From assembly GCF_030384885.1 (NCBI RefSeq), contig NZ_CP128613.1: DNA of 64,000 bases, one strand, 5' to 3'. Made by a program: the position numbers and the translations under genes. Shown here piece after piece: positions 1 through 59,742 of the stretch. The stretch is from Escherichia coli (lineage in GTDB: Bacteria; Pseudomonadota; Gammaproteobacteria; Enterobacterales; Enterobacteriaceae). Position 1 is the first letter of the stretch; each line of letters starts with the position of its first letter. Below the pieces are notes generated by a model. That model did not search any database, had not been told where the DNA came from, and was given only the letters and a program-made list of their open reading frames with translations.

Positions 1-111
1 CACTTCAAAGTAGCGAAAATAGTTACCGTGCCAGGCCACGCCCATCATATCGACGTCGTGAAATGGAATGATCAGCTCGACTTCAGCGGTAAATCGGGGA
101 TCGTTAAGCAC
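1..111 (-). CDS. hotdog-fold acyl-CoA/acyl-ACP thioesterase, N-terminal fragment (gene runs off window start)
   Basis: Reverse complement of 1-111 reads VLNDPRFTAEVELIIPFHDVDMMGVAWHGNYFRYFEV from a GTG at 109-111, immediately after the stop of the upstream gene; the ...HDVD..GVAWHGNYF pattern is typical of 4HBT/YbgC-type thioesterases. Start codon uncertain. Confidence 0.5.
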   Translation of the reverse strand, partial: MLNDPRFTAEVELIIPFHDVDMMGVAWHGNYFRYFEV

Positions 112-114
112 CCT

Positions 115-1791
115 TTACTCCTTGTCCTGGACTTCCGGCAGTTGCCAGAAATCGAAAAAATTAAACCAGTCGAGGGGCGACTGGAGCGCGTGATGTTCCA
201 GACGCGCGGCGTAATGATCGATAGCGTTTTGCAGCGCCTGCTGGCGTTCGCCACGCGGCAACAGCAGCGGGTCGGCAAAGGTTTCGCAGTGAATATGCAG
301 CTTGCCGTGCTGGCGCAGGGCGAAAATCAGATTCACCGGGCAGCGCAAAATAGAGGCGAGAATAAACGGCCCCTGTGGGAAGGGCGCAGGCTGGCCCATA
401 AACGGACTCCAGCAGACGCGCCAGTCGCCGCCGCGTTGCGGGTTGATGGCGATGCGGTCAGCAACAATCGCCACCCATTCGCCGTTATCCAGCTTCTCTT
501 TTAGCAGGATGGCGGTGTCCGGGCCGATATCCGTCACCGGGAGCAGGTTGATGCCTGCCTGCGGGGCCATCTCCTGCATTATCTGTTTAAAACGTTGGGC
601 GTTTTCGCTAAACACCAGCGCGTTAATGGTTTTGTAGCCCTGAATTTTTGCCAGCGCCCGGCACACTTCCACATCGCCAAGATGCGAGGCCAGCAGCAAT
701 TTGCCGCGCGGATCGCTGACGTTAAGTGCCGCTTCTGCGCCTGGTGCAAACAGCACATCACGCCCGAGTTGCAGCTCGCCGCGCCAACTGGCGATTTTGT
801 CGAGCATGGCGTTGCCGAAACGTAGAAAGTGCTGATAGCTGTTGAGTTTTGCTGCCTGTGGTTGATGCTGGCGCACACGGGCGAGCCAGTCTTGCGACGC
901 TTTGCGCGCCCGGCTGGCGGTGAGCCAGTAGACGCCCACCACCGGGTAAAGCAGCGCGGTAAACGCCGTTCTTCCCAGCAGGCGCCAGACCAGCAGCATC
1001 AGGCGCATTCCCCATAATCCTTTCACTTCGCTCTGCCGCGCCCAGTGGCTGGAAGAGTGGCGCATCAGCAGCGAAGGAATACGCGGCAACATGCCGAAAA
1101 ACAGGCGCGTGTGCATGAGCGAGATGCGGACGTTATCTTTCAGGGCATCAAAGTGCGAAAGCCCGTCCAGCGGATAGGTGACGCGAGTCGGCACGAAATA
1201 GCTGGTGTTTCCCTGCCAGTAGAGGCGCACCATCACTTCGGTGTCGAAATCCATCCGCTTGCCGATGGTGGCGTGTTTTGCCAGTTGCAGCGTTGGCGCA
1301 ACCGGATAAACGCGAAAGCCGCACATGCTGTCTTTCAGTTGCAGGGAGAGCGTTTCGATCCACACCCAGACGTGGGTGACCCAGCGCCCGTACAGCCGTG
1401 AGCGGGGGATGGAGTCATCGTAAATTGGCTGGCCGGAGATCAGTGCCGCAGGGTGTTGTTCAGCGAGTGCCAGCAGTTTGGGGATATCTTCAATCGCGTG
1501 CTGACCGTCGGCATCCACCTGTACCGCATGGCTGAACCCCGCGTCTGCCGCTGCCTGTAAGCCGCGCATTACCGCCGCGCCTTTGCCTGCGTTTTCTGCC
1601 AGGCGAATTAATGTCACGCCAGGCTGTTCGGCAACCAGATTATCCAGTTGCTGTTGCGTGGCGGCATCGCTGCCGTCATCCACCACAATACAGGGCAGAT
1701 TAAATGGCTTAAGACGCGCCAGCACGCCCGGCATCATTGCGCCGTGGTTGTAGCAGGGGATCAACACGCAGGGAGAAAAGTTTACCGACAT
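115..1791 (-). CDS. bifunctional family-2 glycosyltransferase / LpxL-like lipid acyltransferase (ApeJ-like)
   Basis: 558-aa ORF; N-terminus has GT-A signatures (LIPCYNH, VVDDGSDA, VDADGQH); C-terminal half resembles lauroyl/myristoyl (HtrB/LpxL-family) acyltransferases. Family assignment by pattern recognition, not search. Confidence 0.8.
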   Translation of the reverse strand: MSVNFSPCVLIPCYNHGAMMPGVLARLKPFNLPCIVVDDGSDAATQQQLDNLVAEQPGVTLIRLAENAGKGAAVMRGLQAAADAGFSHAVQVDADGQHAIEDIPKLLALAEQHPAALISGQPIYDDSIPRSRLYGRWVTHVWVWIETLSLQLKDSMCGFRVYPVAPTLQLAKHATIGKRMDFDTEVMVRLYWQGNTSYFVPTRVTYPLDGLSHFDALKDNVRISLMHTRLFFGMLPRIPSLLMRHSSSHWARQSEVKGLWGMRLMLLVWRLLGRTAFTALLYPVVGVYWLTASRARKASQDWLARVRQHQPQAAKLNSYQHFLRFGNAMLDKIASWRGELQLGRDVLFAPGAEAALNVSDPRGKLLLASHLGDVEVCRALAKIQGYKTINALVFSENAQRFKQIMQEMAPQAGINLLPVTDIGPDTAILLKEKLDNGEWVAIVADRIAINPQRGGDWRVCWSPFMGQPAPFPQGPFILASILRCPVNLIFALRQHGKLHIHCETFADPLLLPRGERQQALQNAIDHYAARLEHHALQSPLDWFNFFDFWQLPEVQDKE

Positions 1792-2135
1792 AGGCGGATC
1801 TTCCCGCTACTGGCGGTGTGGCGGGCGTCACCGTCGTGACGCTGATAACTAAAGCTCAGAATCTGGCGTTCTTCCTGCCAGCTAAGCGTGAGTGTGACGC
1901 GGTTATCCGGCAGCAATGGAGCCTGGAATTTGATGTTCTGAATGGAGTGAAAACGCCAACCGGGCGCGAGCAGGGCAAGCGCGTAACTCATCGCCCAGTC
2001 GATTTGTGCCACGCCGGGGAGTAATGGTTGTACGGCAAAATGACCGCGAAACCAGAACAGATCTGCCCTGAGATGCAAAACAATCTCAAGGTGATTCACT
2101 TGTGCCTGATGGCGCTCGATTTCATGGGGCTTCAT
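1782..2135 (-). CDS. FabA/FabZ-like hotdog 3-hydroxyacyl-ACP dehydratase
   Basis: Motif FRGHFAVQPLLPGVAQIDWAMS resembles the FabZ motif F.GHFP..P.MPGV; start placed at the ATG (2133-2135) preceded by AGGAG rather than the track's upstream ATG at 2165; overlaps the upstream gene's stop by 14 nt. Confidence 0.75.
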   Translation of the reverse strand: MKPHEIERHQAQVNHLEIVLHLRADLFWFRGHFAVQPLLPGVAQIDWAMSYALALLAPGWRFHSIQNIKFQAPLLPDNRVTLTLSWQEERQILSFSYQRHDGDARHTASSGKIRLCR

Positions 2136-3483
2136 GAAATAACTCCTGTAATTGCGCATAGACACGCTTGTTCATACTGTTTACTGGCATTTCATCAATA
2201 ACGCGCCAGTAACGCGGAATAGCAACTGGCTCCAGCGTCGGGCGCAGTAATCGCCGCCAGGCCATTTCCTGGCTGTGCCCGCCGCCGTTTTGCCATTGCA
2301 GGCGAGCTTCGTCATCCAGCACCAGCAAAACGCCAATACTCTGACGCCCGCCGCGCGTAACGGGAACTGCCGCCGCCTCGTGAATACCGTCCAGCGCCAG
2401 CAGACGTTGTTCTACTTCCTGGAGTGAAATGCGTTTTTCTTCAATCTTAACGATGCGTCCGCGACGCCCCATCAGATGGAACTGGCCGTCTTCGCTAAAC
2501 TGCAAGATATCGTCGAGTAACAGGCCGCTATCTTCCTCCATCAGAGGTGAAAAGAGACGAAAGGCATCATCTTCGGCCTGGAACTGCATACCTGGAAAGG
2601 GCCGCCAGCGGCGTTGCTCTTGTTCGCGGTAACGCCAGGCGATGACGCCGGTTTCCGTGCTGCCGTAGATTTCATCAGGCCAGACGCGCAGCCAGCTCGC
2701 GGTGTGTTGTACGTCCTGCCACGGTAGTTCACCGCCAGCGGACAGAAGCACCTGAACGGGGGGCGGGGATAGCTGAGCATCCAGACGCTTCAAAAATGCC
2801 GGGCTGCTGATGAAGATATAGCGATGCTGATGACTCAACGCGGCAAACTGTTCGACATACCAGAGCATGGCGGCATGGAGCGGTAATCCCAGCGCCATGG
2901 GCAGGAAAACGCGAAAAGTCAGGCCGTACAAATGCTGCGGCAATACGGAACCGATGACACGACATCCGGCAAGACGTGCGCCTAATCGTTCAGCCAGCAG
3001 TTCTGCTTCACGGTCCAACAAACGAACAGGTTTAATCACCCGCTTCGGCTGCCCTGTGGAACCAGAGGTAAACAGCTCGATATAAGCGTCTGGCGCTATA
3101 GCGGCAAAGGTGAATGATTGTGTCGCGACTTGTGGGGAGCTTGCTACCAACTGCAATGAACCTTGGCAGTTAAGTTCGCTGTCGCTAAGCACACCATCGA
3201 ACAGTTCACGTTGCTCGTTAAGCTGGATGACGCGGTTATGCCCCGGAAGCACCGGTGTTTTTCCGGCGTGTAGCGTGGCGAGCAGGGCAACGATAAACAG
3301 ATAGCAGTCCTCAAAGCACAGCGCCCAGCGTTCACCTGGTTGTTGCTGTAAACGGCAGATAAGTTGCGAGACATCGTGACGCAAATCGCCCAGCGTCCAG
3401 GTGCTTTCGTCCAGCCACGCAATGGGCGTGTCATCAGAGCGTGGCGCAGTCAGCCAGCGTGCAAGCGGTAAGGTCTGCTTCAT
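2122..3483 (-). CDS. AMP-dependent synthetase/ligase (acyl-ACP/acyl-CoA synthetase-like)
   Basis: TSGSTGQPK AMP-binding motif; start placed at the ATG that overlaps the upstream TGA as ATGA (3480-3483); the track ORF extends to 3522. Confidence 0.8.
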   Translation of the reverse strand: MKQTLPLARWLTAPRSDDTPIAWLDESTWTLGDLRHDVSQLICRLQQQPGERWALCFEDCYLFIVALLATLHAGKTPVLPGHNRVIQLNEQRELFDGVLSDSELNCQGSLQLVASSPQVATQSFTFAAIAPDAYIELFTSGSTGQPKRVIKPVRLLDREAELLAERLGARLAGCRVIGSVLPQHLYGLTFRVFLPMALGLPLHAAMLWYVEQFAALSHQHRYIFISSPAFLKRLDAQLSPPPVQVLLSAGGELPWQDVQHTASWLRVWPDEIYGSTETGVIAWRYREQEQRRWRPFPGMQFQAEDDAFRLFSPLMEEDSGLLLDDILQFSEDGQFHLMGRRGRIVKIEEKRISLQEVEQRLLALDGIHEAAAVPVTRGGRQSIGVLLVLDDEARLQWQNGGGHSQEMAWRRLLRPTLEPVAIPRYWRVIDEMPVNSMNKRVYAQLQELFHEAP

Positions 3484-4061
3484 GAGCGATCTCTTTTCAT
3501 CACCTGACGGCGCACCAGCCATTCACCAGCCATTAACGTCCCCATCAACAAATAAGCAATCATGCCGTTCCAGGCAGTCCATAACGACATATCGCCATGC
3601 AGCGCGGTAAAGAGGGCAATTCCGCCGTTGATGATGAAAAAGCCGCACCAGATTTGCGTGACGTGGCGGGTATAGCGCACGCCCTTTTCCGGGAGGTCTG
3701 GCTCCTGCAAACGCGCCAGCCGCTCAACAATTGGCATTGCCGACCACAGCGAACCGCCAAAAACCGCCAGCATTACCGCGTTAACCACTACCGGGTAAAA
3801 CAGCAGTAGCTGGTGCGTTTTCAACAGAAAGCTGGCAACACACAAGGCGATACCCACAACAGCGACGATTTGTGTGACGGCTTGTAGCGGCCCGGCCTGG
3901 CAACGAGTCTGGCGCAGGCGCAATAAAAGCAGCAGCGCCATCAGCGGCAACAGCCAGTGCAGGCCGTTATGTGCCAAACCAAGCCAAATCACAAACGGCC
4001 AGGCGAGCAGCAATAATCCAGTCAGCAGTTTAATAATCGGTAGCGAGCGAATGCCCGACAT
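3480..4061 (-). CDS. integral membrane protein of the lipid-biosynthesis cluster
   Basis: 193-aa ORF, several hydrophobic segments, co-directional and translationally coupled within the cluster. Confidence 0.7.
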   Translation of the reverse strand: MSGIRSLPIIKLLTGLLLLAWPFVIWLGLAHNGLHWLLPLMALLLLLRLRQTRCQAGPLQAVTQIVAVVGIALCVASFLLKTHQLLLFYPVVVNAVMLAVFGGSLWSAMPIVERLARLQEPDLPEKGVRYTRHVTQIWCGFFIINGGIALFTALHGDMSLWTAWNGMIAYLLMGTLMAGEWLVRRQVMKRDRS

Positions 4062-4065
4062 CAGA

Positions 4066-4317
4066 TCAGGCTTCTTGTAGCAGGCGTTCTACGGCCTCTA
4101 CGACATCCCGGACTGTACGCACTGCTTTAAACTCTTCCGGCTTGATTTTCTTACCGGTTTTCTTTTGCAGATGCACAATCATGTCAACGGCGTCGATGCT
4201 GTCCAGTTCCAGATCTTCGTACAGGCGCGCTTCAGGTTTGATGTCCTGCGGTTCGATTTCAAACAGCTTAACCAGCAGAGCTGAGACTTCCTGATAGACG
4301 GTTTGTTGTTCTGTCAT
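4066..4317 (-). CDS. acyl carrier protein
   Basis: 83 aa, acidic, LDSIDAVDMI phosphopantetheine-attachment motif. Confidence 0.85.
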   Translation of the reverse strand: MTEQQTVYQEVSALLVKLFEIEPQDIKPEARLYEDLELDSIDAVDMIVHLQKKTGKKIKPEEFKAVRTVRDVVEAVERLLQEA

Positions 4318-4328
4318 GATGGCTTTCC

Positions 4329-4586
4329 TCAGGCACGTTGTGCAGCAATAAAAGAGGCCAGAGTGGCGACAGAGAAAAAGTGCTGACGCATCTCTTCACT
4401 TTCCGCAGAAAGTACAACGCCATATTCATTTTTCACTGCCAGCCCCAGTTCCAGGGCATCGATAGAGTCCAGCCCTAAACCGTCGCCAAACAGTGGCGCG
4501 TCGGTATCGATATCATCAGGAGCCAACTCGTCCAGATTGAGGGTGCTGATGATGAGATTTTTAATTTCCAGATAAAGCGCTTGCAT
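4329..4586 (-). CDS. acyl carrier protein
   Basis: 85 aa, GLDSIDALELG phosphopantetheine-attachment motif; 5' end overlaps the upstream acyltransferase gene, so the exact start is uncertain. Confidence 0.8.
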   Translation of the reverse strand: MQALYLEIKNLIISTLNLDELAPDDIDTDAPLFGDGLGLDSIDALELGLAVKNEYGVVLSAESEEMRQHFFSVATLASFIAAQRA

Positions 4587-5382
4587 TATTTATTCCTGAG
4601 AGAGGTAAACAACCTTGTTGTAATTGAAGCAAAAGATGCCGGTTTAACTGCCTTGCTGCTAGCGCCGGTTCTTGTGAAGTTGCATCGTAAAATTTATTGA
4701 TTTCTACCCGCCCACGGACTTCAACCGTAAAAAGTGGCCTGGCAGGTGGAACGTCATACCATTTACTTTGTTTATCCAGCAGATGCTCGCTACAGCCGAT
4801 CGTCACGATGCGTAAATCGCTGGCGCAGCGCACGGCAATATTCGCCGCACCGCGCTGTAACGTCATTTTTTCACCAGGCTTCGTCCGCGTGCCTTCGGGG
4901 AAAATCAAGATAGTGTCGCCCTGTGCCAGTCGCTGTTGGCAACGGGGTAAGAGAGTTTCAGCTTCGCTGTTGATTAAATAATCTGCCGCCCGCACGACGC
5001 CGCCAAGAAAAGGATTTTTTAACAGCGCGCTTTTTACCAGGCAGTCAGTTTCTGGCATGACTGATGCCAGTAGTACGTAATCGATAAGCGTGGGATGATT
5101 AGCTACGACGAGGCAACCGCGTTCCTGACGTAAAATTTCAGCCCCATCAATACGATAATCCAGCACGCCAAGCCCTTTTGCGACTGTTAAAAACAGACGA
5201 AAACTGGCGGCAATGCTGCGACGCGCCAAACGACGGCGGCGGGAAGTGTTCCACACCAAAACTAACAGTACGTTAAACCACACCACAGAGAGTAGTAGTC
5301 CGCCGAGGCCAAACAGGGCAAAACACAACCCGGTCATAACCAGTCGCCATGTCCATTCCAGGCGTGACATCAGCTTACTCAT
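4561..5382 (-). CDS. PlsC-family (lysophospholipid/1-acylglycerol-3-phosphate-like) acyltransferase
   Basis: 273 aa; N-terminal transmembrane segment, NH-x4-D motif (ANHPTLID) and FPEGTRT motif. Confidence 0.8.
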   Translation of the reverse strand: MSKLMSRLEWTWRLVMTGLCFALFGLGGLLLSVVWFNVLLVLVWNTSRRRRLARRSIAASFRLFLTVAKGLGVLDYRIDGAEILRQERGCLVVANHPTLIDYVLLASVMPETDCLVKSALLKNPFLGGVVRAADYLINSEAETLLPRCQQRLAQGDTILIFPEGTRTKPGEKMTLQRGAANIAVRCASDLRIVTIGCSEHLLDKQSKWYDVPPARPLFTVEVRGRVEINKFYDATSQEPALAARQLNRHLLLQLQQGCLPLSGINNASALSGN

Positions 5383-6125
5383 CTACGGCTCCAGCGCCAC
5401 TGTACGCGCTCACCAGGAAGTGAAAAAGCATCTGAATTTTGTAAATAGTGCTGTAAAAACAACATGCTTTGCGGCAGTGTTGTTTCATTGCCCGCAATGG
5501 CTGGCTGTGTTTCACATTGCCACTCATCGCCAGCTTCAATCACCAGCGCAACAGCATATGGCCAGGTCGGCATTTCTGCTGGGAGCTGCGGATGATAGAA
5601 CTCAGGTAGAAAGCCATCAAAATCGACCATCAACACACGCTGGTATCCCGCTTGTAGCAGGCTAAGCACTTCACTCAAACCTTGCTGGAAAGTGTCGCGA
5701 CCAGCCGAAAGCGATGACGAAACGATCGGCTGTTTGGCCGCAATGGTCAGGTTACCCACGGAAGAGTTGTGTACTGAAAGTGCAAAGTCGGTGGGGGAAA
5801 GCGCCTGTTCAGTTGCCAGTGCATGAACAATGCGGTAATTGCGCTCCAGTTCGCCATGACGACTGGTATACAAAACGGCGTCTGGCTGATGGCGGCGTAG
5901 CATTGCCAGGCCGCATTCAACAGCCAGTTTGCTGCCTGAACTGAGGCGGCGGGCGGTCATCATTGGCAGTTCACTTAATTTTGCCAACGGCGCGGCAGGG
6001 TCAATCGCCCACGGCTGGCGCGACCATGCTTGCCATTGCTGCGCTTCGCTAAGTCCAGGCGCCAGTGCCTGCCAGTCGGTAATATTTAATGTAAATTTCA
6101 TCAACGCGCGCCCGCGGTAAACCAA
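5379..6125 (-). CDS. hypothetical protein, possibly beta-ketoacyl-synthase N-terminal-like domain (chain-length-factor-like)
   Basis: 248-aa ORF with ATGA overlap to the downstream acyltransferase; function inferred only from position in the cluster and vague resemblance; needs an HMM search. Confidence 0.6.
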   Translation of the reverse strand: MVYRGRALMKFTLNITDWQALAPGLSEAQQWQAWSRQPWAIDPAAPLAKLSELPMMTARRLSSGSKLAVECGLAMLRRHQPDAVLYTSRHGELERNYRIVHALATEQALSPTDFALSVHNSSVGNLTIAAKQPIVSSSLSAGRDTFQQGLSEVLSLLQAGYQRVLMVDFDGFLPEFYHPQLPAEMPTWPYAVALVIEAGDEWQCETQPAIAGNETTLPQSMLFLQHYLQNSDAFSLPGERVQWRWSRR

Positions 6126-6141
6126 AATTATTAAGTGACGA

Positions 6142-7209
6142 TTATTTCTTTTGGCATATCAAAAGAGTATGCCCAACGCCTAAATTATCGTGGCGCTCTG
6201 CTACCTGAAATCCTGCTTTATTCAGATAGTCGTAAAATTTCTCTGCACTATAGAAACGGCTGTTACCGTTTGCCATGCAGGTGAAATAAAGTGAGGACGC
6301 GTTCAGGCTAAATGATGCTGCTTCAAACCGCTGCGCATCCCAGAACAACTCCATGATGCAAACTTTTGCGCCAGGCTTCATTACGCTGGCGATTTTGCTG
6401 AGTATGCTAATTATTTGTTCGGGTGAAAAACAGTCTAAAAATTGGCTCATCCACCAGATATCAGCCTCGCCCGGTAATGGGGCATCGCTTAGCATATCCA
6501 CCGCATGGAAATCTATGCGATCAGAAAAACCTGCATTCGCGATATTTTCTTTCGCTAGTACGATTTGTTGTGGCAGATCTAATAACGTCACGGCGATGTT
6601 TTCATTGTATTTGCAGCAACGCAAAGCCCACTTACCCGTATTGCCGCCTACATCGTACAATGTTGTGGGGTTGTTGGCGAATACATAAGGCAGTGCGGCG
6701 TTAAATGCGCCATCTGAATAGTAATGATCAAACGCAAACCAGCTTTCACGAGCGGCATCTGGTAATTGTGAAAGTGCGGGATATATCGTCGACCAGTCGC
6801 CAAATACTTTTAACCCGGACGGTTTTCCTTCATTGAGTGAATCGGCGAGGAAGAAGAGCCCCTGATAGCAGACATCCTGGGTGAAATCCATATTCACGCG
6901 AGTCATAGTGTCATGCAGGAGGTAATGACCGATTTTCGCCAGGTAATACATTCCCTCTTTACAGGTAATAATTCGCCCGCTTAAGCCCATATCTAACAGA
7001 ACGCTGGCCGCATATTCGTTGATATGGCTATGTTCGGTGATATCAGCCAGCGTTGCGCCATGTTTGCCTTGCCGATCCAGATATGAAAGTACACCCGCAT
7101 TACGTAGGCAGAGAGCTGTTTGAAAAAGCATGGGGGCAAAGGCAATGCGTTGAGCTTCGGTAATCGCATCCAGTGCGCTAAGAGAATCCTGTTCGTACAT
7201 GTTGGGCAC
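6142..7209 (-). CDS. class I SAM-dependent O-methyltransferase
   Basis: 355 aa; VGGNTGKWA glycine-rich SAM-binding motif followed by LLDLP...DM..D, typical of O-methyltransferase family 2. Confidence 0.85.
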   Translation of the reverse strand: MPNMYEQDSLSALDAITEAQRIAFAPMLFQTALCLRNAGVLSYLDRQGKHGATLADITEHSHINEYAASVLLDMGLSGRIITCKEGMYYLAKIGHYLLHDTMTRVNMDFTQDVCYQGLFFLADSLNEGKPSGLKVFGDWSTIYPALSQLPDAARESWFAFDHYYSDGAFNAALPYVFANNPTTLYDVGGNTGKWALRCCKYNENIAVTLLDLPQQIVLAKENIANAGFSDRIDFHAVDMLSDAPLPGEADIWWMSQFLDCFSPEQIISILSKIASVMKPGAKVCIMELFWDAQRFEAASFSLNASSLYFTCMANGNSRFYSAEKFYDYLNKAGFQVAERHDNLGVGHTLLICQKK

Positions 7210-7268
7210 AACCTGTTAAGAGGGAATTAAATTATTATCGGACCGAAGCGGCCCGACTTTAGGGGAAA

Positions 7269-7658
7269 TTACAAATCTGCGCCAGCCGACAAATTCAGTT
7301 GAATATCTTTGTCGAGATTGCGGACCCAGCGATTATAGTTTTTATGAATTTGTCCGCCTGATGCTTGCAGGTTCTGACTATTTTCATAATTGATATCGTA
7401 GCTGGATGCCGTGTAGTTAATGCGAATTTCGGCTGAATGATCGCGTGACTGTTGACGTGCTTTAATTACGCCTTGTCCGGCTTCGGACATAATCCATTTG
7501 CGTTCAACGCCAGCTTTCAGAATCGCTTTTTTCACTTGTTCCGGGGTATGACCAGCGCTGACGGTTGAGTGAACCTGATCAATTGGCGCAGTACGCGCGC
7601 AACCCGCTAAAGCACCCACAACAGCAATAGCCGCAAACCATTTCATGTAATGTCTCAT
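7269..7658 (-). CDS. small lipoprotein, first gene of the cluster in this window
   Basis: 129 aa; signal peptide with lipobox LAGC (MKWFAAIAVVGALAGC); exact start (7658 vs 7646) uncertain. Confidence 0.65.
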   Translation of the reverse strand: MRHYMKWFAAIAVVGALAGCARTAPIDQVHSTVSAGHTPEQVKKAILKAGVERKWIMSEAGQGVIKARQQSRDHSAEIRINYTASSYDINYENSQNLQASGGQIHKNYNRWVRNLDKDIQLNLSAGADL

Positions 7659-21521: not shown

Positions 21522-21540
21522 TTTCCACTATTAATCAGAG

Positions 21541-21576
21541 AACCCTGGATGAGAGTCCGGGGTTTTTGTTTTTTGG
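21541..21576 (+). terminator. rho-independent terminator after rpoH
   Basis: Hairpin aaccctggatgagagtccggggtt followed by tttgttttttgg. Confidence 0.75.
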
Positions 21577-21792
21577 ACCTCTGCAATAATCAATTACCCC
21601 CTCCGACAAAACGCCAATCCCCACGCAGATTGTTAATAAACTGTCAAAATAGCTATTCCAATATCATAAAAATCGGGTATGTTTTAGCAGAGTATGCTGC
21701 TAAAGCACGGGTAGTCATGCATAAAACGAAATAAAGTGCTGAACAACAACATCACAACACACGTAATAACCAGATGAATGGGGATTCTCAGG

Positions 21793-35342: not shown

Positions 35343-37085
35343 ATAAAACCGACGTTTTTACGCCGGGTGGCTATTGCTGCTCTGCTCACAGGAAGTTGTT
35401 TTAGTGCTGTCGCCGCGCCACCTGCGCCGCCGCCAGTCTCGTATGGCGTGGAGGAGGATGTCTTCCATCCGGTACGCGCGAAGCAGGGGATGGTAGCATC
35501 TGTGGACGCCACTGCCACTCAGGTGGGGGTAGATATCCTTAAGCAGGGCGGGAATGCCGTTGATGCTGCCGTGGCAGTGGGCTACGCGCTGGCGGTAACG
35601 CATCCGCAGGCAGGGAATCTGGGCGGCGGCGGTTTTATGCTGATCCGCACTAAAGATGGCAATACCACCGCCATCGATTTCCGCGAAATGGCACCCGCCA
35701 AAGCGACCCGCGATATGTTCCTTGATGATCAGGGCAACCCGGACAGCAAAAAATCTCTCACTTCGCATCTTGCTTCTGGCACACCCGGTACGGTAGCGGG
35801 CTTCTCGTTGGCGCTGGAGAAATACGGCACCATGCCGCTGAACAAAGTTGTGCAGCCTGCGTTTAAACTGGCACGCGATGGTTTTATCGTTAACGATGCG
35901 CTGGCAGACGATCTCAAAACCTACGGCAGTGAAGTGCTACCAAATCACGAAAACAGCAAAGCTATCTTCTGGAAAGAGGGCGAACCGCTGAAAAAGGGCG
36001 ACAAGCTGGTACAGACGAATCTGGCAAAGAGCCTGGAGATGATTGCCGAAAACGGCCCGGATGAATTCTACAAAGGCACGATAGCGGAACAAATCGCCCT
36101 GGAGATGCAGAAAAACGGTGGCTTGATCACTAAAGAAGATTTAGCGGCGTATAAAGCGGTCGAACGTACACCAATAAGTGGCGATTATCGCGGGTATCAG
36201 GTTTACTCCATGCCACCGCCATCTTCCGGCGGGATTCATATCGTGCAGATCCTCAATATTCTGGAAAACTTCGATATGCAGAAATACGGCTTTGGCAGCG
36301 CCGATGCGATGCAAATCATGGCAGAAGCGGAGAAATACGCCTACGCCGACCGCTCGGAATATCTTGGCGACCCGGATTTTGTCAAAGTACCGTGGCAGGC
36401 GCTGACCAATAAAGCCTATGCCAAATCTATTGCCGATCAAATCGATATCAATAAAGCGAAGCCATCCAGCGAAATTCGTCCTGGCAAGCTTGCGCCTTAT
36501 GAGAGTAATCAAACTACCCATTACTCAGTGGTGGATAAAGACGGTAACGCCGTGGCGGTGACCTATACGCTGAACACCACCTTCGGTACGGGCATTGTCG
36601 CGGGCGAGAGCGGTATTTTGCTTAATAATCAGATGGATGATTTCTCCGCCAAACCAGGCGTACCGAACGTTTACGGGCTGGTGGGCGGCGATGCTAACGC
36701 TGTCGGGCCGAATAAACGTCCGCTGTCATCGATGTCACCAACCATTGTGGTGAAAGACGGAAAAACCTGGCTGGTGACCGGTAGCCCTGGCGGAAGCCGA
36801 ATTATCACCACTGTGCTGCAAATGGTGGTGAACAGCATCGATTATGGCATGAATGTCGCCGAAGCGACCAATGCGCCGCGTTTCCACCATCAGTGGTTGC
36901 CGGACGAGCTGCGTGTCGAGAAAGGATTTAGTCCGGATACGCTCAAGCTGCTGGAAGCAAAAGGTCAGAAAGTGGCGCTGAAAGAGGCGATGGGCAGTAC
37001 ACAAAGCATTATGGTTGGGCCTGACGGTGAGTTGTACGGTGCATCCGACCCGCGCTCGGTGGATGATTTAACGGCGGGGTACTAA
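35343..37085 (+). CDS. ggt: gamma-glutamyltranspeptidase
   Basis: Recognised from MIKPTFLRRVAIAALL (580 aa); catalytic Thr in the ...NQTTHYSVVDKDGNAV context. Confidence 0.97.
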   Translation: MKPTFLRRVAIAALLTGSCFSAVAAPPAPPPVSYGVEEDVFHPVRAKQGMVASVDATATQVGVDILKQGGNAVDAAVAVGYALAVTHPQAGNLGGGGFMLIRTKDGNTTAIDFREMAPAKATRDMFLDDQGNPDSKKSLTSHLASGTPGTVAGFSLALEKYGTMPLNKVVQPAFKLARDGFIVNDALADDLKTYGSEVLPNHENSKAIFWKEGEPLKKGDKLVQTNLAKSLEMIAENGPDEFYKGTIAEQIALEMQKNGGLITKEDLAAYKAVERTPISGDYRGYQVYSMPPPSSGGIHIVQILNILENFDMQKYGFGSADAMQIMAEAEKYAYADRSEYLGDPDFVKVPWQALTNKAYAKSIADQIDINKAKPSSEIRPGKLAPYESNQTTHYSVVDKDGNAVAVTYTLNTTFGTGIVAGESGILLNNQMDDFSAKPGVPNVYGLVGGDANAVGPNKRPLSSMSPTIVVKDGKTWLVTGSPGGSRIITTVLQMVVNSIDYGMNVAEATNAPRFHHQWLPDELRVEKGFSPDTLKLLEAKGQKVALKEAMGSTQSIMVGPDGELYGASDPRSVDDLTAGY

Positions 37086-37122
37086 GGTTAGCGGCCCTCT
37101 TCGTGGGAAGAGGGCCGTATTG

Positions 37123-37407
37123 TCAGGGCAAGCCGAAGGTAGCTTTTTTTATTTCATAATCCTGTAGATATTCTTCCAGCGGCTTTGCCGTTCCCAGCGA
37201 ATGAATTTCACCACTGTCTTTATCAATAATAAAAGGTGCGTTACCAGCTAAGCGCGCGGCCTCATCACCAGTTTCGAGAAATTCTCGTGCTTCGAAACAG
37301 AAATACCAGCCCTGGCTAAAGCGTCCATGTAGAGTAATGACGACGGCGAGATCTGCATCATCAAGGTAATGGTTCGCTTTCGCGAATGCTTCCTGATAAT
37401 TAATCAT
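37123..37407 (-). CDS. yrhB: heat-stable chaperone-like protein YrhB
   Basis: 94 aa, recognised (MINYQEAFAKANHYLDDADLAVVITLHG...). Confidence 0.85.
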   Translation of the reverse strand: MINYQEAFAKANHYLDDADLAVVITLHGRFSQGWYFCFEAREFLETGDEAARLAGNAPFIIDKDSGEIHSLGTAKPLEEYLQDYEIKKATFGLP

Positions 37408-37518
37408 AATGATTCTGGATTTTCCGATGGGGCAGTTAGGTCATGCTTTTTTTCAAGCGCAACATATCCAACAAAGCCTTAATAAAATATTGTAATTTAC
37501 AATAAGTGTTAATGATGT

Positions 37519-38007
37519 TCATTTCACACGCGCCATATAATACGCATCGACATATTCACCGTTTCGTAATGCGTACTTCTTGCCAGTCCCTTCAATCTCA
37601 AAGCCGAATTTTTTATAGACCTTAATTGCTGGCGCGTTATCAACGAACACCGTTAGTTCAATACGATCTACCCGCAACCAGTTGTCGCACATTGCAATCA
37701 TCTCTCGCATCAGGGCGCTGGCGACGCCGCGGTTCTTCCAGCGGGAGTCGACACAGATACCAAAGTCGGCAACATGACTGCGGCGTGGGCGTTGTTGCAC
37801 GTCAATAGTGAGATGACCCACAACGTCTCCATCAATACAGGCGACGAGTTGCTTGATGCCGGGACGATCGGCGAGTCGCTCCTGCCACATATGATCGGAA
37901 GGATGAGGCACCTGTAGTGTGTTGCAATACACCTCCGGCTGGGCGTGAATCTGCCTGATGGCCTCGTAATCCCGTGTTTCTGCATGGCGTATTACTATCT
38001 CACTCAT
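37519..38007 (-). CDS. yhhY: GNAT-family N-acetyltransferase YhhY
   Basis: Recognised from MSEIVIRHAETRDYEAIRQIHAQ (162 aa). Confidence 0.92.
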   Translation of the reverse strand: MSEIVIRHAETRDYEAIRQIHAQPEVYCNTLQVPHPSDHMWQERLADRPGIKQLVACIDGDVVGHLTIDVQQRPRRSHVADFGICVDSRWKNRGVASALMREMIAMCDNWLRVDRIELTVFVDNAPAIKVYKKFGFEIEGTGKKYALRNGEYVDAYYMARVK

Positions 38008-38099
38008 TCCTTTGTCCTCTTTGGGGTAAATGTCCCTTTCAACATCATTGACTTTCAAATGCGAGTCAAATGCATTTTTTTGCAAAAAGTGTTGGACAA

Positions 38100-38127
38100 G
38101 TGCGAATGAGAATGATTATTATTGTCT
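38100..38127 (+). promoter_or_regulatory. Fur box / ryhB promoter
   Basis: gaatgagaatgattattattg matches the Fur consensus GATAATGATAATCATTATC and sits immediately upstream of the RyhB start. Confidence 0.75.
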
Positions 38128-38128
38128 C

Positions 38129-38219
38129 GCGATCAGGAAGACCCTCGCGGAGAACCTGAAAGCACGACATTGCTCACATTGCTTCCAGTATTACTTAGCC
38201 AGCCGGGTGCTGGCTTTTT
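38129..38219 (+). ncRNA. ryhB: RyhB small RNA (Fur-repressed, iron-sparing)
   Basis: Sequence gcgatcaggaagaccctcgcggagaacctgaaagcacgacattgctcacattgcttccagtattacttagccagccgggtgctggcttttttt recognised as E. coli RyhB with its terminal hairpin and U-tract; lies between yhhY and yhhX as expected. Confidence 0.92.
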
Positions 38220-38341
38220 TTTTGACCTTTCGTTCTCAATTTATCCACGGGAAGTGCTTGTGTTTGTTATGCGCACTCCTGTAGGAACCGCGTCCGCTTT
38301 GCGCTAAGGTGGTAGATAACCACCTTAAAAAGGACGAAATC

Positions 38342-39379
38342 ATGGTCATCAACTGCGCCTTTATTGGCTTCGGCAAAAGCACCACCCGTTACCATCTGCC
38401 GTATGTACTTAACCGCAAGGATAGCTGGCATGTCGCGCATATTTTTCGCCGCCATGCGAAGCCGGAAGAACAGGCTCCCATTTATTCCCATATTCATTTC
38501 ACCAGCGATCTCGACGAAGTGCTAAACGATCCCGACGTTAAGTTGATTGTCGTCTGCACTCATGCGGACAGCCACTTCGAGTACGCGAAACGCGCGCTGG
38601 AAGCCGGGAAAAATGTGCTGGTCGAAAAACCGTTCACCCCGACACTTGCGCAGGCGAAAGAGCTGTTTGCGCTGGCGAAAAGCAAAGGGCTGACCGTTAC
38701 GCCGTATCAGAATCGTCGCTTTGACTCCTGTTTTCTGATGGCGAAAAAAGCGATTGAAAGCGGCAAGCTGGGAGAGATTGTCGAAGTGGAAAGCCATTTT
38801 GACTATTACCGCCCGGTGGCAGAAACCAAACCTGGACTGCCGCAGGATGGCGCGTTCTATGGCCTTGGTGTGCATACCCTCGACCAGATAATCTCGCTGT
38901 TCGGTCGCCCGGATCACGTCGCTTATGACATCCGCAGCCTGCGTAATAAAGCCAATCCTGACGACACCTTCGAAGCGCAGCTGTTTTATGGCGATCTAAA
39001 AGCCATCGTCAAAACCAGCCATCTGGTGAAAATCGATTATCCGAAATTTATCGTTCACGGGAAGAAAGGTTCGTTTATTAAATATGGTATCGACCAGCAG
39101 GAAACCAGCCTGAAGGCTAATATTATGCCGGGCGAGCCGGGATTCGCAGCGGATGATTCGGTCGGTGTGCTGGAGTATGTCAATGACGAGGGCGTTACGG
39201 TCAGAGAAGAGATGAAGCCGGAGATGGGCGATTACGGACGCGTTTATGATGCGTTGTACCAAACCATCACCAACGGTGCACCAAATTACGTCAAGGAATC
39301 TGAAGTTCTTACCAATCTGGAAATCCTTGAACGCGGTTTTGAGCAAGCCTCTCCCTCCACAGTGACTCTTGCGAAGTAA
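38342..39379 (+). CDS. yhhX: Gfo/Idh/MocA-family NAD(P)-dependent oxidoreductase YhhX
   Basis: Recognised from MVINCAFIGFGKSTTRYHLPYV (345 aa); good Shine-Dalgarno (aaggacg); the track ORF starts at an upstream GTG. Confidence 0.93.
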   Translation: MVINCAFIGFGKSTTRYHLPYVLNRKDSWHVAHIFRRHAKPEEQAPIYSHIHFTSDLDEVLNDPDVKLIVVCTHADSHFEYAKRALEAGKNVLVEKPFTPTLAQAKELFALAKSKGLTVTPYQNRRFDSCFLMAKKAIESGKLGEIVEVESHFDYYRPVAETKPGLPQDGAFYGLGVHTLDQIISLFGRPDHVAYDIRSLRNKANPDDTFEAQLFYGDLKAIVKTSHLVKIDYPKFIVHGKKGSFIKYGIDQQETSLKANIMPGEPGFAADDSVGVLEYVNDEGVTVREEMKPEMGDYGRVYDALYQTITNGAPNYVKESEVLTNLEILERGFEQASPSTVTLAK

Positions 39380-39501
39380 GTTTGATGACCTCTCGAATAG
39401 TTCAATTTTTTTGAACAGAGGGGTCAATTTTCACCCTCTATCATCCCAGGCGGATCGGGTCCACACTAAGCCCATCGAAATCATTCAGGGGGCGAATACA
39501 A

Positions 39502-55131: not shown

Positions 55132-56649
55132 ATGGAAAGAATAATGCAAAACAGAAAATGGATTTTGACCTCGCTGATAATGACTTTTTTCGGCATCCCC
55201 ATACTGGCGCAATTTTTGGCAGCGGTTATTGCCATGCTGGGGGCCGGGCTTGCCGCTATTCTTGAGGCTTGCAATTTACTCTTTACGCCAACAATTTATC
55301 TTCTACTCAACGTCTTTATGCTGACGCTGGGGGCGATAATCCTATTTTTCTCTGGTCGCGTGTGGGCCGGTGATAGCGCACCAGAAAACAGAGAAATAGC
55401 CGTCTGGCGGCAATGCTTTTTTCTTTTACCTGCACTGTTAACTCTGGTTGGCTGGATAATCACGCTACATCTGGCAGATTATCAATTTCGCCAAATGGGA
55501 GCAGGTTGGTTGGCAGAGCTTATGCTCCCCTGGCTGGGAGTTTTGTTAGTCTCATTAGTCGGAGGTGAGTTCTGGTGGATAGTCATTATACCCGTTGGTG
55601 CGCATATTAGTTTTTCGCTGGGGTATGGCTGGCCGACCAGATATCCTTTAACCGGCACGTACGGGTTACGTTGCCGTAATTCCCTCCTGTTTATCCTTCT
55701 CATGCTTGGTTTTATCGCTGGTTATCAGGCTTATTTATATAAACAGATTAATCCCGGCGTCGGTGTGCGTGAAAATATTGATACCTGGGCCTGGCGACCC
55801 GATAAACTCAATAATCAACTGACGCCACTGCGTGGTAAACCGCAAATTCAGTTTACACAAAACTGGCCGCGACTCGATGGTGCTACGGCGGCGTACCCAA
55901 TTTATGCTTCTGCCTTTTATGCGTTGAGCGTTATACCGGAAGATTTCCACACATGGGAATATCTGGAGAACTCTCGTACCCCCGATGCATATAACAGGAT
56001 TGTTAAAGGTGATGCCGATATTATTTTTGTGGCGCAACCTTCCGGTGGGCAGAAAAAACGTGCAGAGGAATCGGGCGTCACTTTGAACTACACTCCTTTC
56101 GCCCGTGAAGCATTCGTTTTCATCGTCAATGCGGATAACCCGGTTAATTCCCTGACTGACCAACAGGTGCGTGACATCTTCAGTGGCGCAATTACCAACT
56201 GGCGTACTGTTGGCGGTAACGATCAGGAGATCCAGACCTGGCAACGCCCGGAAGACTCTGGCAGCCAGACAGTGATGCAATCGCAGGTCATGAAAAATGT
56301 CCGCATGATCTCGCCGCAGGAAACCGAAGTGGCAAGCATGATGGAGGGAATGATTAAAGTTGTTGCCGAATACCGTAATACAAACAACTCAATAGGCTAC
56401 ACCTTCCGCTATTACGCAACACAAATGAATGCCGATAAAAATATAAAACTGCTAGCTATTAACGGTATTGCACCGACTGCGGAAAATATTCGTAACGGCA
56501 AATATCCATATATCGTCGATGCCTTTATGGTAACGCGGGAAAATACTACGTCAGAAACACAAAAACTGGTCGAATGGTTTTTAACGCCGCAGGGGCAGAG
56601 TCTGGTGGAAGATGTGGGTTATGTACCGTTGCATACAACAATGAAATAA
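55132..56649 (+). CDS. hypothetical fusion protein: N-terminal multi-pass membrane domain + C-terminal PstS-like (PBP-like) periplasmic binding domain
   Basis: 505-aa ORF; the first ~230 aa are hydrophobic helices; the C-terminal domain carries PstS-family-like segments (NSLTDQQVRDIFSGAITNWRTVGG, WQRPEDSGSQTVM); start may instead be the ATG at 55144. Confidence 0.8.
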   Translation: MERIMQNRKWILTSLIMTFFGIPILAQFLAAVIAMLGAGLAAILEACNLLFTPTIYLLLNVFMLTLGAIILFFSGRVWAGDSAPENREIAVWRQCFFLLPALLTLVGWIITLHLADYQFRQMGAGWLAELMLPWLGVLLVSLVGGEFWWIVIIPVGAHISFSLGYGWPTRYPLTGTYGLRCRNSLLFILLMLGFIAGYQAYLYKQINPGVGVRENIDTWAWRPDKLNNQLTPLRGKPQIQFTQNWPRLDGATAAYPIYASAFYALSVIPEDFHTWEYLENSRTPDAYNRIVKGDADIIFVAQPSGGQKKRAEESGVTLNYTPFAREAFVFIVNADNPVNSLTDQQVRDIFSGAITNWRTVGGNDQEIQTWQRPEDSGSQTVMQSQVMKNVRMISPQETEVASMMEGMIKVVAEYRNTNNSIGYTFRYYATQMNADKNIKLLAINGIAPTAENIRNGKYPYIVDAFMVTRENTTSETQKLVEWFLTPQGQSLVEDVGYVPLHTTMK

Positions 56650-56674
56650 CTTTTGAGAGAACGGAATCAGCGCG

Positions 56675-57667
56675 ATGAATAAATTCATAGGCGTTTTACT
56701 GCTAGGTGCGGTTTTACTGGCGGGATGTGTCGACCGGGAAGGCTACTATAACAGCGTCAGGGAAGAAGACAGCCATGGACTGACGACTCTGCGGGGGCAA
56801 CCTGAATTACGTTACAACGATGATTGGTCAAGATGGCCGAGAGTATACGGCGCTACAGCCTTATACCCGCTGTATGCCTCCGCGTATTATGAATTAGTAC
56901 CCGAGCCAAAAGATAAGGATCGAACCTCGCTGGCCTGGCAGGCGTATGGTTTGCAACAAACCCGAACAGCTGAAGCCTACGATAGTCTGATCAAGGGTAC
57001 CGCGACGGTTATTTTTGTTGCACAACCGTCGGAAGGACAGAAAAAACGTGCAGAAGAAGCAGGCGTTAAACTGAAATATACCGCGTTTGCCCGCGAAGCC
57101 TTTGTCTTTATCGTTGATATCAAAAACCCGGTTAATTCACTTAGCGAACAGCAGGTCAAAGACATTTTTAGCGGTAAAGTGAGTCGCTGGAATAAAGTGG
57201 GCGGCGGTGACGAAAGTATAAAAGTCTGGCAGCGGCCAGAAGATTCTGGAAGCCAAACGGTTATGAAGGGACTGGTTATGCAAGATACTCCAATGCTGCC
57301 AGCCAAAAAATCCACTGTTATCGATCTTATGGGCGGTTTAATTACCGAAGTCGCCGACTACCAAAACACAACATCTTCCATTGGATACACCTTCCACTAT
57401 TACGTCACACGTATGAATGACAATATGCTCAAAATGCGCAAACAGATCAAACTGCTAGCTATAACTGGCATTGCGCCTACAGAGGAAAATATCCGTAACG
57501 GCACTTATCCGTACATAATTGATGCTTATATGGTGACGCACGAAACCCCTGCGCTGGAAACGCAGAAATTCGTCGACTGGTTTTTAAGCCCGCAGGGACA
57601 GCAATTGGTAGAGGATGTGGGGTATGTGCCGATTCATGACGCATCATACGAATCATCAGTGCAATAA
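56675..57667 (+). CDS. hypothetical PstS-like (PBP-like) lipoprotein, paralogue of the C-terminal domain of the upstream gene
   Basis: 330 aa; lipobox LLAGC; long identical/near-identical stretches with the preceding protein (FVAQPS.GQKKRAEE.GV, NPVNSL..QQV.DIFSG, WQRPEDSGSQTVM, IGYTF.YY.T.MN). Confidence 0.85.
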   Translation: MNKFIGVLLLGAVLLAGCVDREGYYNSVREEDSHGLTTLRGQPELRYNDDWSRWPRVYGATALYPLYASAYYELVPEPKDKDRTSLAWQAYGLQQTRTAEAYDSLIKGTATVIFVAQPSEGQKKRAEEAGVKLKYTAFAREAFVFIVDIKNPVNSLSEQQVKDIFSGKVSRWNKVGGGDESIKVWQRPEDSGSQTVMKGLVMQDTPMLPAKKSTVIDLMGGLITEVADYQNTTSSIGYTFHYYVTRMNDNMLKMRKQIKLLAITGIAPTEENIRNGTYPYIIDAYMVTHETPALETQKFVDWFLSPQGQQLVEDVGYVPIHDASYESSVQ

Positions 57668-58269
57668 TGATGAATAAAATCAGACTTTATATTCCTCCGT
57701 TAATTCTTGGTTTTGTTATTGTGCCGTTGTTGGTGTGGCCGACGGTGGTTGCGCTGGCTGCTTCTGTTATCACGCTGAGTTTTCTGGGAGAGATACTGTT
57801 CTCTATCCCGCTCATGATCAGGCGTATTTCACTTCTGCAATTACAACTATGGTTATCGGCTGAATATGCGCTTTTCTTCTGTGCAATGGTGGGCGTTGGT
57901 TGGCAATTTGCGCGCAGAACGCCACCTGAATTGAAAAGCAGACTGCATTGTTGGCTGGTATTTGCACCAGTTTATTTCTGGTTGCTCCTGTGGAATATCA
58001 TTTTCTATGTCGCGCCAGCGAATATTGCGTTGCTGGAGAATATGCGCAGTTTCTTTCTGACAGTTGTCTGGCTCCCACTGAATTTTTCGCCATTTTGGTC
58101 TCAACCGTGGATTGACTTTGTCGGTCCAATAAGCGCACAGCTTGGTTTTGCGTTGGGATATTATTGCCAGTGGCGTAGCAAAAATAGAAGCCAGATACGG
58201 AAGTGGAGTGAGTGGGGAACGTGCCTGAGTTTTGTTACGTTGGGTATGATGGCGTGGGCTTTGCGGTAA
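57667..58269 (+). CDS. hypothetical membrane protein, paralogue of the N-terminal membrane domain of the 505-aa protein
   Basis: 200 aa, multi-pass; TAATG overlap with the upstream lipoprotein gene; segment GPISAQLGFALGYYCQW matches PVGAHISFSLGYGWPTR of the fusion protein. Confidence 0.75.
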   Translation: MMNKIRLYIPPLILGFVIVPLLVWPTVVALAASVITLSFLGEILFSIPLMIRRISLLQLQLWLSAEYALFFCAMVGVGWQFARRTPPELKSRLHCWLVFAPVYFWLLLWNIIFYVAPANIALLENMRSFFLTVVWLPLNFSPFWSQPWIDFVGPISAQLGFALGYYCQWRSKNRSQIRKWSEWGTCLSFVTLGMMAWALR

Positions 58270-58376
58270 TTCCCTGACTCAAAAAGTAGGTCAGATTGTT
58301 GACAAAGTGCGCTTTGTTCATGCCGGATGCGACATGAACGTCTTATTGGCCTACAAGACCATGCAAATTGTAGTGG

Positions 58377-59626
<1,250 letters not shown>

Positions 59627-59742
59627 AATTCAATATATTGCATAAGCCACGTAGGCCTGATAAGCGTAGCGCATCAGGCAGTTTTTTGTTTATCATCAGT
59701 CTCAGGTCAGATTGAAATCTGACCTGGCCACCTTACGTTAAT

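Follow-up and report, generated by a model that had tools for sequence, protein, structure and literature searches.

Does the short gap between yhhY and yhhX in this Escherichia coli genome hold a small RNA, one or more small proteins, or an RNA that is itself translated? A preliminary description of this DNA, made from its letters and a list of its open reading frames (ORFs), placed RyhB here, together with a Fur box and a terminator, and considered that two ORFs overlapping it should not be called as genes. We analyzed the locus within a window of 64,000 nucleotides, by which we mean the whole stretch of DNA under study (contig NZ_CP128613.1). This window has only 5 mismatches in 64,000 bases relative to E. 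coli 2013C-4282 (NZ_CP027579.1, 3892818-3956817), whose RefSeq annotation was used for the neighboring genes. The sole differences between the two lie at 4109, 13192, 34367 and 36203-36204, the two adjacent ones falling within ggt. Judged from its sequence, the segment 38129-38223 on the plus strand is almost certainly E. coli ryhB, a Fur-repressed, Hfq-dependent base-pairing sRNA, and the 84-aa and 61-aa ORFs that run across it are chance frames.

The identity of the RNA was evident from two comparisons that the preliminary description had itself proposed, and both came out in its favor. The Rfam RyhB model (RF00057) matched positions 38158-38222 (+) over its full length (model positions 1-67) with 83.1 bits against a gathering score of 55 (E-value 3.6e-14). 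That model spans the conserved core and terminator only, and the remaining RNA was placed by alignment to K-12. In the pairwise alignment, the window and K-12 MG1655 were 100% identical over the whole interval bounded by the yhhY start codon and the end of the T-tract, which takes in the promoter, Fur box and RNA, and the first base to differ after ryhB was at 38226, the T-tract and the two bases following it being identical. The K-12 ncRNA feature ryhB (b4451, 3580922-3581016) maps exactly onto the RNA given in Table 1, whose 5' end is that transferred from the K-12 annotation. The full ryhB unit, from promoter to 3' end, comprises 38093-38223. The span in the preliminary description, 38100-38219, starts between the two promoter hexamers, leaving out the -35, and falls 4 nt short at the 3' end.

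Table 1. Features of the ryhB locus, in window coordinates.
Feature	Position	Strand	Basis and remarks
yhhY (N-acetyltransferase)	37519..38007	-	Divergent neighbor upstream of ryhB; RefSeq annotation of the near-identical record
84-aa ORF (ATG)	38030..38284	+	Almost certainly a chance ORF, not a gene; program-made ORF list
-35 hexamer TGGACA	38093..38098	+	Promoter scan; identical to K-12
Fur box GAGAATGATTATTATTGTC (predicted)	38108..38126	.	Overlaps the -10 hexamer; ends 3 nt before the transcription start
-10 hexamer TATTAT	38117..38122	+	Promoter scan; its end is 6 nt ahead of 38129, the 5' end annotated in K-12
61-aa ORF (TTG)	38122..38307	+	Almost certainly a chance ORF, not a gene; program-made ORF list
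RyhB small RNA	38129..38223	+	95 nt; exact string match and alignment to K-12 b4451; Rfam RF00057
5' stem-loop (TCAGG...CCTGA)	38133..38159	+	Minimum free energy (MFE) fold; compensatory changes
27-nt core GCACGACATTGCTCACATTGCTTCCAG	38162..38188	+	Target-pairing region; invariant
RyhP nine-codon ORF ATT...TAG (IAHIASSIT; published as MAHIASSIT)	38169..38198	+	Third frame, which neither long ORF uses; intact
A/U-rich spacer TATTACTT	38189..38196	+	Unpaired in the fold; single-stranded, precedes the terminator; putative Hfq contact
Intrinsic terminator	38197..38223	+	7-bp G+C-rich stem, 5-nt loop, T9; terminator scan, fold and Rfam structure line
yhhX (oxidoreductase)	38342..39379	+	Same-strand neighbor downstream of ryhB; RefSeq annotation

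The surroundings of the gene agree with this identification, as the same pair, yhhY and yhhX, flanks ryhB in K-12 MG1655. The RNA sequence had been described as intact, and the covariance-model score, the base-for-base identity to K-12 and this synteny bear that out. An Rfam scan of the whole 64-kb window at gathering thresholds returned two matches, RyhB and isrC, so that RyhB is present in the window as one copy. When positions 37000-39500 were rescanned permissively for other RNA families, RyhB alone was found. Differences from K-12 were seen on either side of the gene. The spacer between RyhB and yhhX has a few substitutions and two 1-bp indels relative to K-12. That spacer also contains, in its indel-bearing part, a second and weaker terminator-like hairpin (38246-38262, +), whose 6-bp stem precedes TTTGTTAT. 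On the other side, the region with yhhZ, which follows yhhY in K-12, is absent here, and yhhY is followed immediately by yrhB and after it ggt (37123-38007 compared with K-12).

Upstream of the RNA, a scan found a single sigma-70-like promoter on the plus strand, with 10 of 12 hexamer positions matched and an 18-nt spacer. The predicted Fur box agrees with 16 of the 19 bp of the consensus GATAATGATAATCATTATC (3 mismatches), and the 64-kb window contains no other match to the consensus, where 0.01 matches are expected from shuffled sequences. The box is conserved outside E. coli as well: of the 112 loci with full flanks that were compared in other species, 95 had a Fur box (≤4 mismatches, ≤120 nt upstream of the core), versus 2 of 112 when a downstream segment was scored as a control. 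At the other end of the gene, the terminator stem occupies 38197-38215 and the T9 run 38215-38223, the first T closing the stem. The Fur box and terminator had been called intact in the preliminary description, and both are as in K-12. The terminator stem was invariant among the 43 closest distinct RNAs, and covariation there is uninformative either way. Distant relatives keep a terminator hairpin built from other stems, for example GCCCGC/GCGGGC and GGCCAG/CTGGCC (by inspection).

In the alignment of those 43 RNAs, the core was invariant along with the terminator. The 5' stem (38133-38137 paired with 38155-38159) had double-sided changes that keep the pairing at 3 of its 5 pairs, namely pairs 5-35, 7-33 and 8-32, in 1, 7 and 4 sequences, respectively. 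Segment lengths varied, with a 5' part of 30-37 nt, a spacer before the terminator of 8, 9, 11 or 12 nt and a total length of 92-100 nt. Within the core, positions 38166-38174 (GACATTGCT) are a 9-nt perfect complement of positions -4 to +5 of sodB, as scored against the K-12 copy of that gene. An A/U-rich stretch followed by a terminator with a U-tail forms the Hfq-binding module of Hfq-dependent sRNAs, and by analogy the spacer TATTACTT is a probable Hfq contact in this RNA.

Two energy-based measures were considered and set aside. The MFE of 38130-38222 was -20.7 kcal/mol, with a z-score of 0.15, and 105 of 200 shuffled sequences folded as well; MFE is uninformative for RyhB, which is a largely single-stranded sRNA. 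Likewise, a whole-molecule RNAduplex prediction of RyhB against sodB -60..+30 gave an unrealistically long duplex whose energy was equalled by 43 of 500 shuffles. Since neither the folding nor the duplex energies were distinctive, the case for the identity of the RNA rests on homology and motifs. None of the results spoke against that identity.

The core is widely shared. An exact search of one genome per species recovered at least 120 stretches with GCACGACATTGCTCACATTGCTTCCAG, and the carriers among the matches listed included Enterobacterales, Aeromonas, Photobacterium, Aliivibrio, Salinivibrio and Zobellella, with several species having two copies. Two-copy arrangements of RyhB were recovered in Yersinia, Photorhabdus, Serratia, Pantoea and Salinivibrio. 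These homologues and paralogues in other gamma-proteobacteria share the 27-nt core unchanged with the RNA studied here, and like it they have a Fur box upstream and a terminator directly behind a short spacer rich in U. They differ from it in that their 5' parts vary in both sequence and length, and some have different terminator stems. No such difference separates the window copy from K-12 RyhB (b4451, RF00057): the RNA, promoter, Fur box, terminator, neighbors and sodB complement are all the same, and within the gene itself there is no difference. All of the features by which RyhB is recognized at the level of sequence were found, i.e., the covariance-model score, core, Fur box, terminator, synteny and sodB complement. 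By these measures the locus is ryhB itself, and neither a relative nor a variant of it.

Within E. coli the promoter and RNA together (131 nt) were present in 5424 of 5426 complete genomes, and were ≥99% identical in 5413 of the 5424 carriers, compared with only 4 for the 451-nt span that includes the flanks. Two genomes of the 5426 had no match to the promoter and RNA, and some genomes had up to 3 copies. One further case stood apart: in NZ_CP195448.1 (310787-310926) the promoter and RNA were only 93.6% identical, and the matching stretch was ~9 nt longer than the query. An insertion in ryhB or in its promoter may account for this.

As the sequence is identical to that of the K-12 gene, the mechanism established in K-12 would apply here. 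RyhB in the literature is repressed directly by Fur, accumulates at low iron, and through Hfq-dependent pairing brings about degradation of the sodB and sdhCDAB mRNAs (PMC3788343). For this strain, Fur repression, Hfq dependence and target decay are what we would expect from that work. When iron is sufficient, Fe2+-Fur would occupy the predicted operator, which lies over the -10 hexamer, and transcription would be blocked. When iron is scarce, Fur would come off and the sigma-70 promoter (38093-38122) would fire from 38129, with transcription presumably ending at the hairpin and T9 run. The single-stranded core of the resulting RNA would then pair with the translation-initiation regions of the sodB and sdhCDAB mRNAs. 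Its targets would be mRNAs of non-essential iron-using proteins, and pairing would block their translation and lead to RNase-dependent decay, so that iron is spared.

The alternative raised by the two long ORFs is that one of them, the 84-aa or the 61-aa, is a genuine small-protein gene, specific to Escherichia, that overlaps ryhB. Both frames had been reported at their correct positions and lengths in the preliminary description, exactly as in the ORF list, and both are indeed open in the window. The ATG of the 84-aa ORF has a GGGG run 3 nt before it, and the exact sequences of both products occur in public protein collections, with the cluster representative of the 61-aa product found on at least 1000 contigs. 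However, these entries are unnamed gene-caller predictions. Both exact sequences have been deposited in GenBank as "hypothetical protein" from E. coli or Shigella (e.g., UTI89_C3950 and SS17_4444), and relatives found by exact look-up were only unnamed predictions from Escherichia and Shigella, with cluster members anywhere from 58 to 142 aa. No Pfam family was found in either ORF (at E ≤ 1), nor in a 34-aa antisense ORF at 38066-38170. RefSeq calls no CDS at either ORF, both in the near-identical record and in the 8 genomes sampled.

The placement of the ORFs also argues against their being genes. The TTG of the 61-aa ORF precedes the RyhB 5' end by 7 nt, and therefore the start is absent from RyhB, the only known transcript. 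The 84-aa ORF starts 99 nt upstream of the same 5' end, next to the yhhY start. To be expressed in full, the ORFs must be read through the Fur operator and/or a strong terminator, as the frame of the 84-aa ORF crosses both of these elements and that of the 61-aa ORF crosses the terminator.

Comparisons with other genomes point in the same direction. A 1-bp indel in K-12, shortly after RyhB, replaces the two C-termini, and the 84-aa product becomes 95 aa and the 61-aa product 53 aa. Another E. coli and E. albertii have unrelated tails, and the frames are truncated or have no start in Citrobacter, Enterobacter, Superficieibacter, Pseudescherichia and Pseudocitrobacter; of these, Citrobacter and Superficieibacter have a counterpart of the 61-aa ORF with 25 aa. 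Across the 112 loci from other species, stop positions scatter widely in all three frames, and the segment lengths of RyhB relatives differ by 1-2 nt, which are not multiples of 3 and break the ORF frames. The two "proteins" are thus conserved only where they overlie the invariant RNA. What would be expected of a protein gene, namely a conserved frame, a start on a known transcript, a frame that has no terminator inside it, and similarity to a family, was found for neither ORF. We consider it very improbable that either one is a gene, and the advice in the preliminary description against calling them is well founded.

The locus is better explained as ryhB with two chance frames over it, and the way it appears in databases is instructive in this respect. 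Gene callers have repeatedly deposited both chance ORFs as hypothetical proteins. In RefSeq, by comparison, NZ_CP027579.1 lists no feature between yhhY and yhhX, a gap in which K-12 does have an annotated ncRNA, and none of 8 RefSeq E. coli genomes sampled down the ranking of matches (0/8) had a feature under the ryhB match. The claim that RyhB is invisible to ORF-based annotation is borne out by these records, some of which hold a protein and others a blank. A reading of the locus from ORFs only, or from a feature table only, would place an invented protein or an empty gap over a major regulator of iron homeostasis. The practical value of this is modest, being that of an annotation check only; RyhB is a textbook bacterial sRNA, this copy of it equals the K-12 reference, and no new biology follows from it. 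We noted in passing that the locus tags of NZ_CP027579.1 pass over RS19705 exactly in the yhhY-yhhX gap (38008-38341), where ryhB lies, and also over RS19615 in the rpoH-livJ spacer (21522-21792).

A different kind of coding capacity has been proposed for ryhB, one that the preliminary description did not mention. Neuhaus et al. (2017) suggested that a nonapeptide, RyhP, is encoded inside ryhB in EHEC EDL933, based on ribosome footprints and on competition assays with overexpression (PMC5331693). If this were so here, ryhB would be bifunctional, its RNA being translated from the ATT at 38169 into a peptide that gives a growth advantage under iron limitation. This reading is already published and is not new to the field. 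It draws on footprints over ryhB in EHEC EDL933, and on plasmids encoding RyhP, a recoded version included, that outcompeted stop-codon controls in iron-free M9 medium (PMC5331693). In the window, the ORF is intact, as is the weak Shine-Dalgarno sequence proposed for it, GGAGAA (38149-38154). The start codon, however, is ATT, the proposed Shine-Dalgarno sequence is 14 nt upstream of it, and the growth phenotype was that of arabinose-induced overexpression from a high-copy plasmid. The citing papers examined repeat the claim without adding support.

The comparative data bear on RyhP in a way similar to that described for the longer ORFs. Its first seven codons lie within the invariant pairing core, and their conservation is uninformative because it is explained by the function of the RNA. 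The full peptide, IAHIASSIT, is kept in only 10 of 112 loci, and the position of the stop is not conserved. In many genera a 1-nt indel in the spacer sends the frame through the terminator, giving ORFs of >25-60 codons. Dual-function sRNAs that encode a small protein are known, the type being SgrS/SgrT. RyhP resembles that type in being a short ORF proposed within a base-pairing sRNA, and one that is intact here. It differs in its non-canonical ATT start, in overlapping the pairing core instead of occupying a separate segment, and in a peptide that varies among genera in both length and sequence. A peptide and a stop conserved across homologues, as looked for in a dual-function RNA, were not found. 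On balance we regard translation of RyhP from this locus as unlikely, although it is a less remote prospect than a gene at either long ORF, and favor ryhB as a base-pairing RNA.

Other regions of the window provided some additional observations. The isrC match of the Rfam scan (RF01387, 59436-59558, -, 145 bits) is inside an IS3-family element at 58365-59630, which is bounded by 30-nt imperfect inverted repeats (58365-58394 and 59601-59630). The match overlaps the first ~119 nt of an annotated, frameshifted transposase CDS (58377-59554, -). Because it overlaps the start of the transposase within the IS3 element, the "isrC" reported here is the 5' end of an insertion sequence. This element is part of a longer stretch from glgP to glpD (~55141-59630), which also contains two genes for PstS-family phosphate-binding proteins and a hypothetical gene; in K-12, glgP is followed directly by glpD. 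The opposite end of the window (1-7646) has, beside yhhT, a cluster of minus-strand genes for acyl carrier proteins, a ketoacyl-synthase chain-length factor and an ApeI-family dehydratase. The same cluster encodes an AMP-binding protein, an acyltransferase, a methyltransferase and a glycosyltransferase, and looks like a lipid biosynthesis cluster of the aryl-polyene type.
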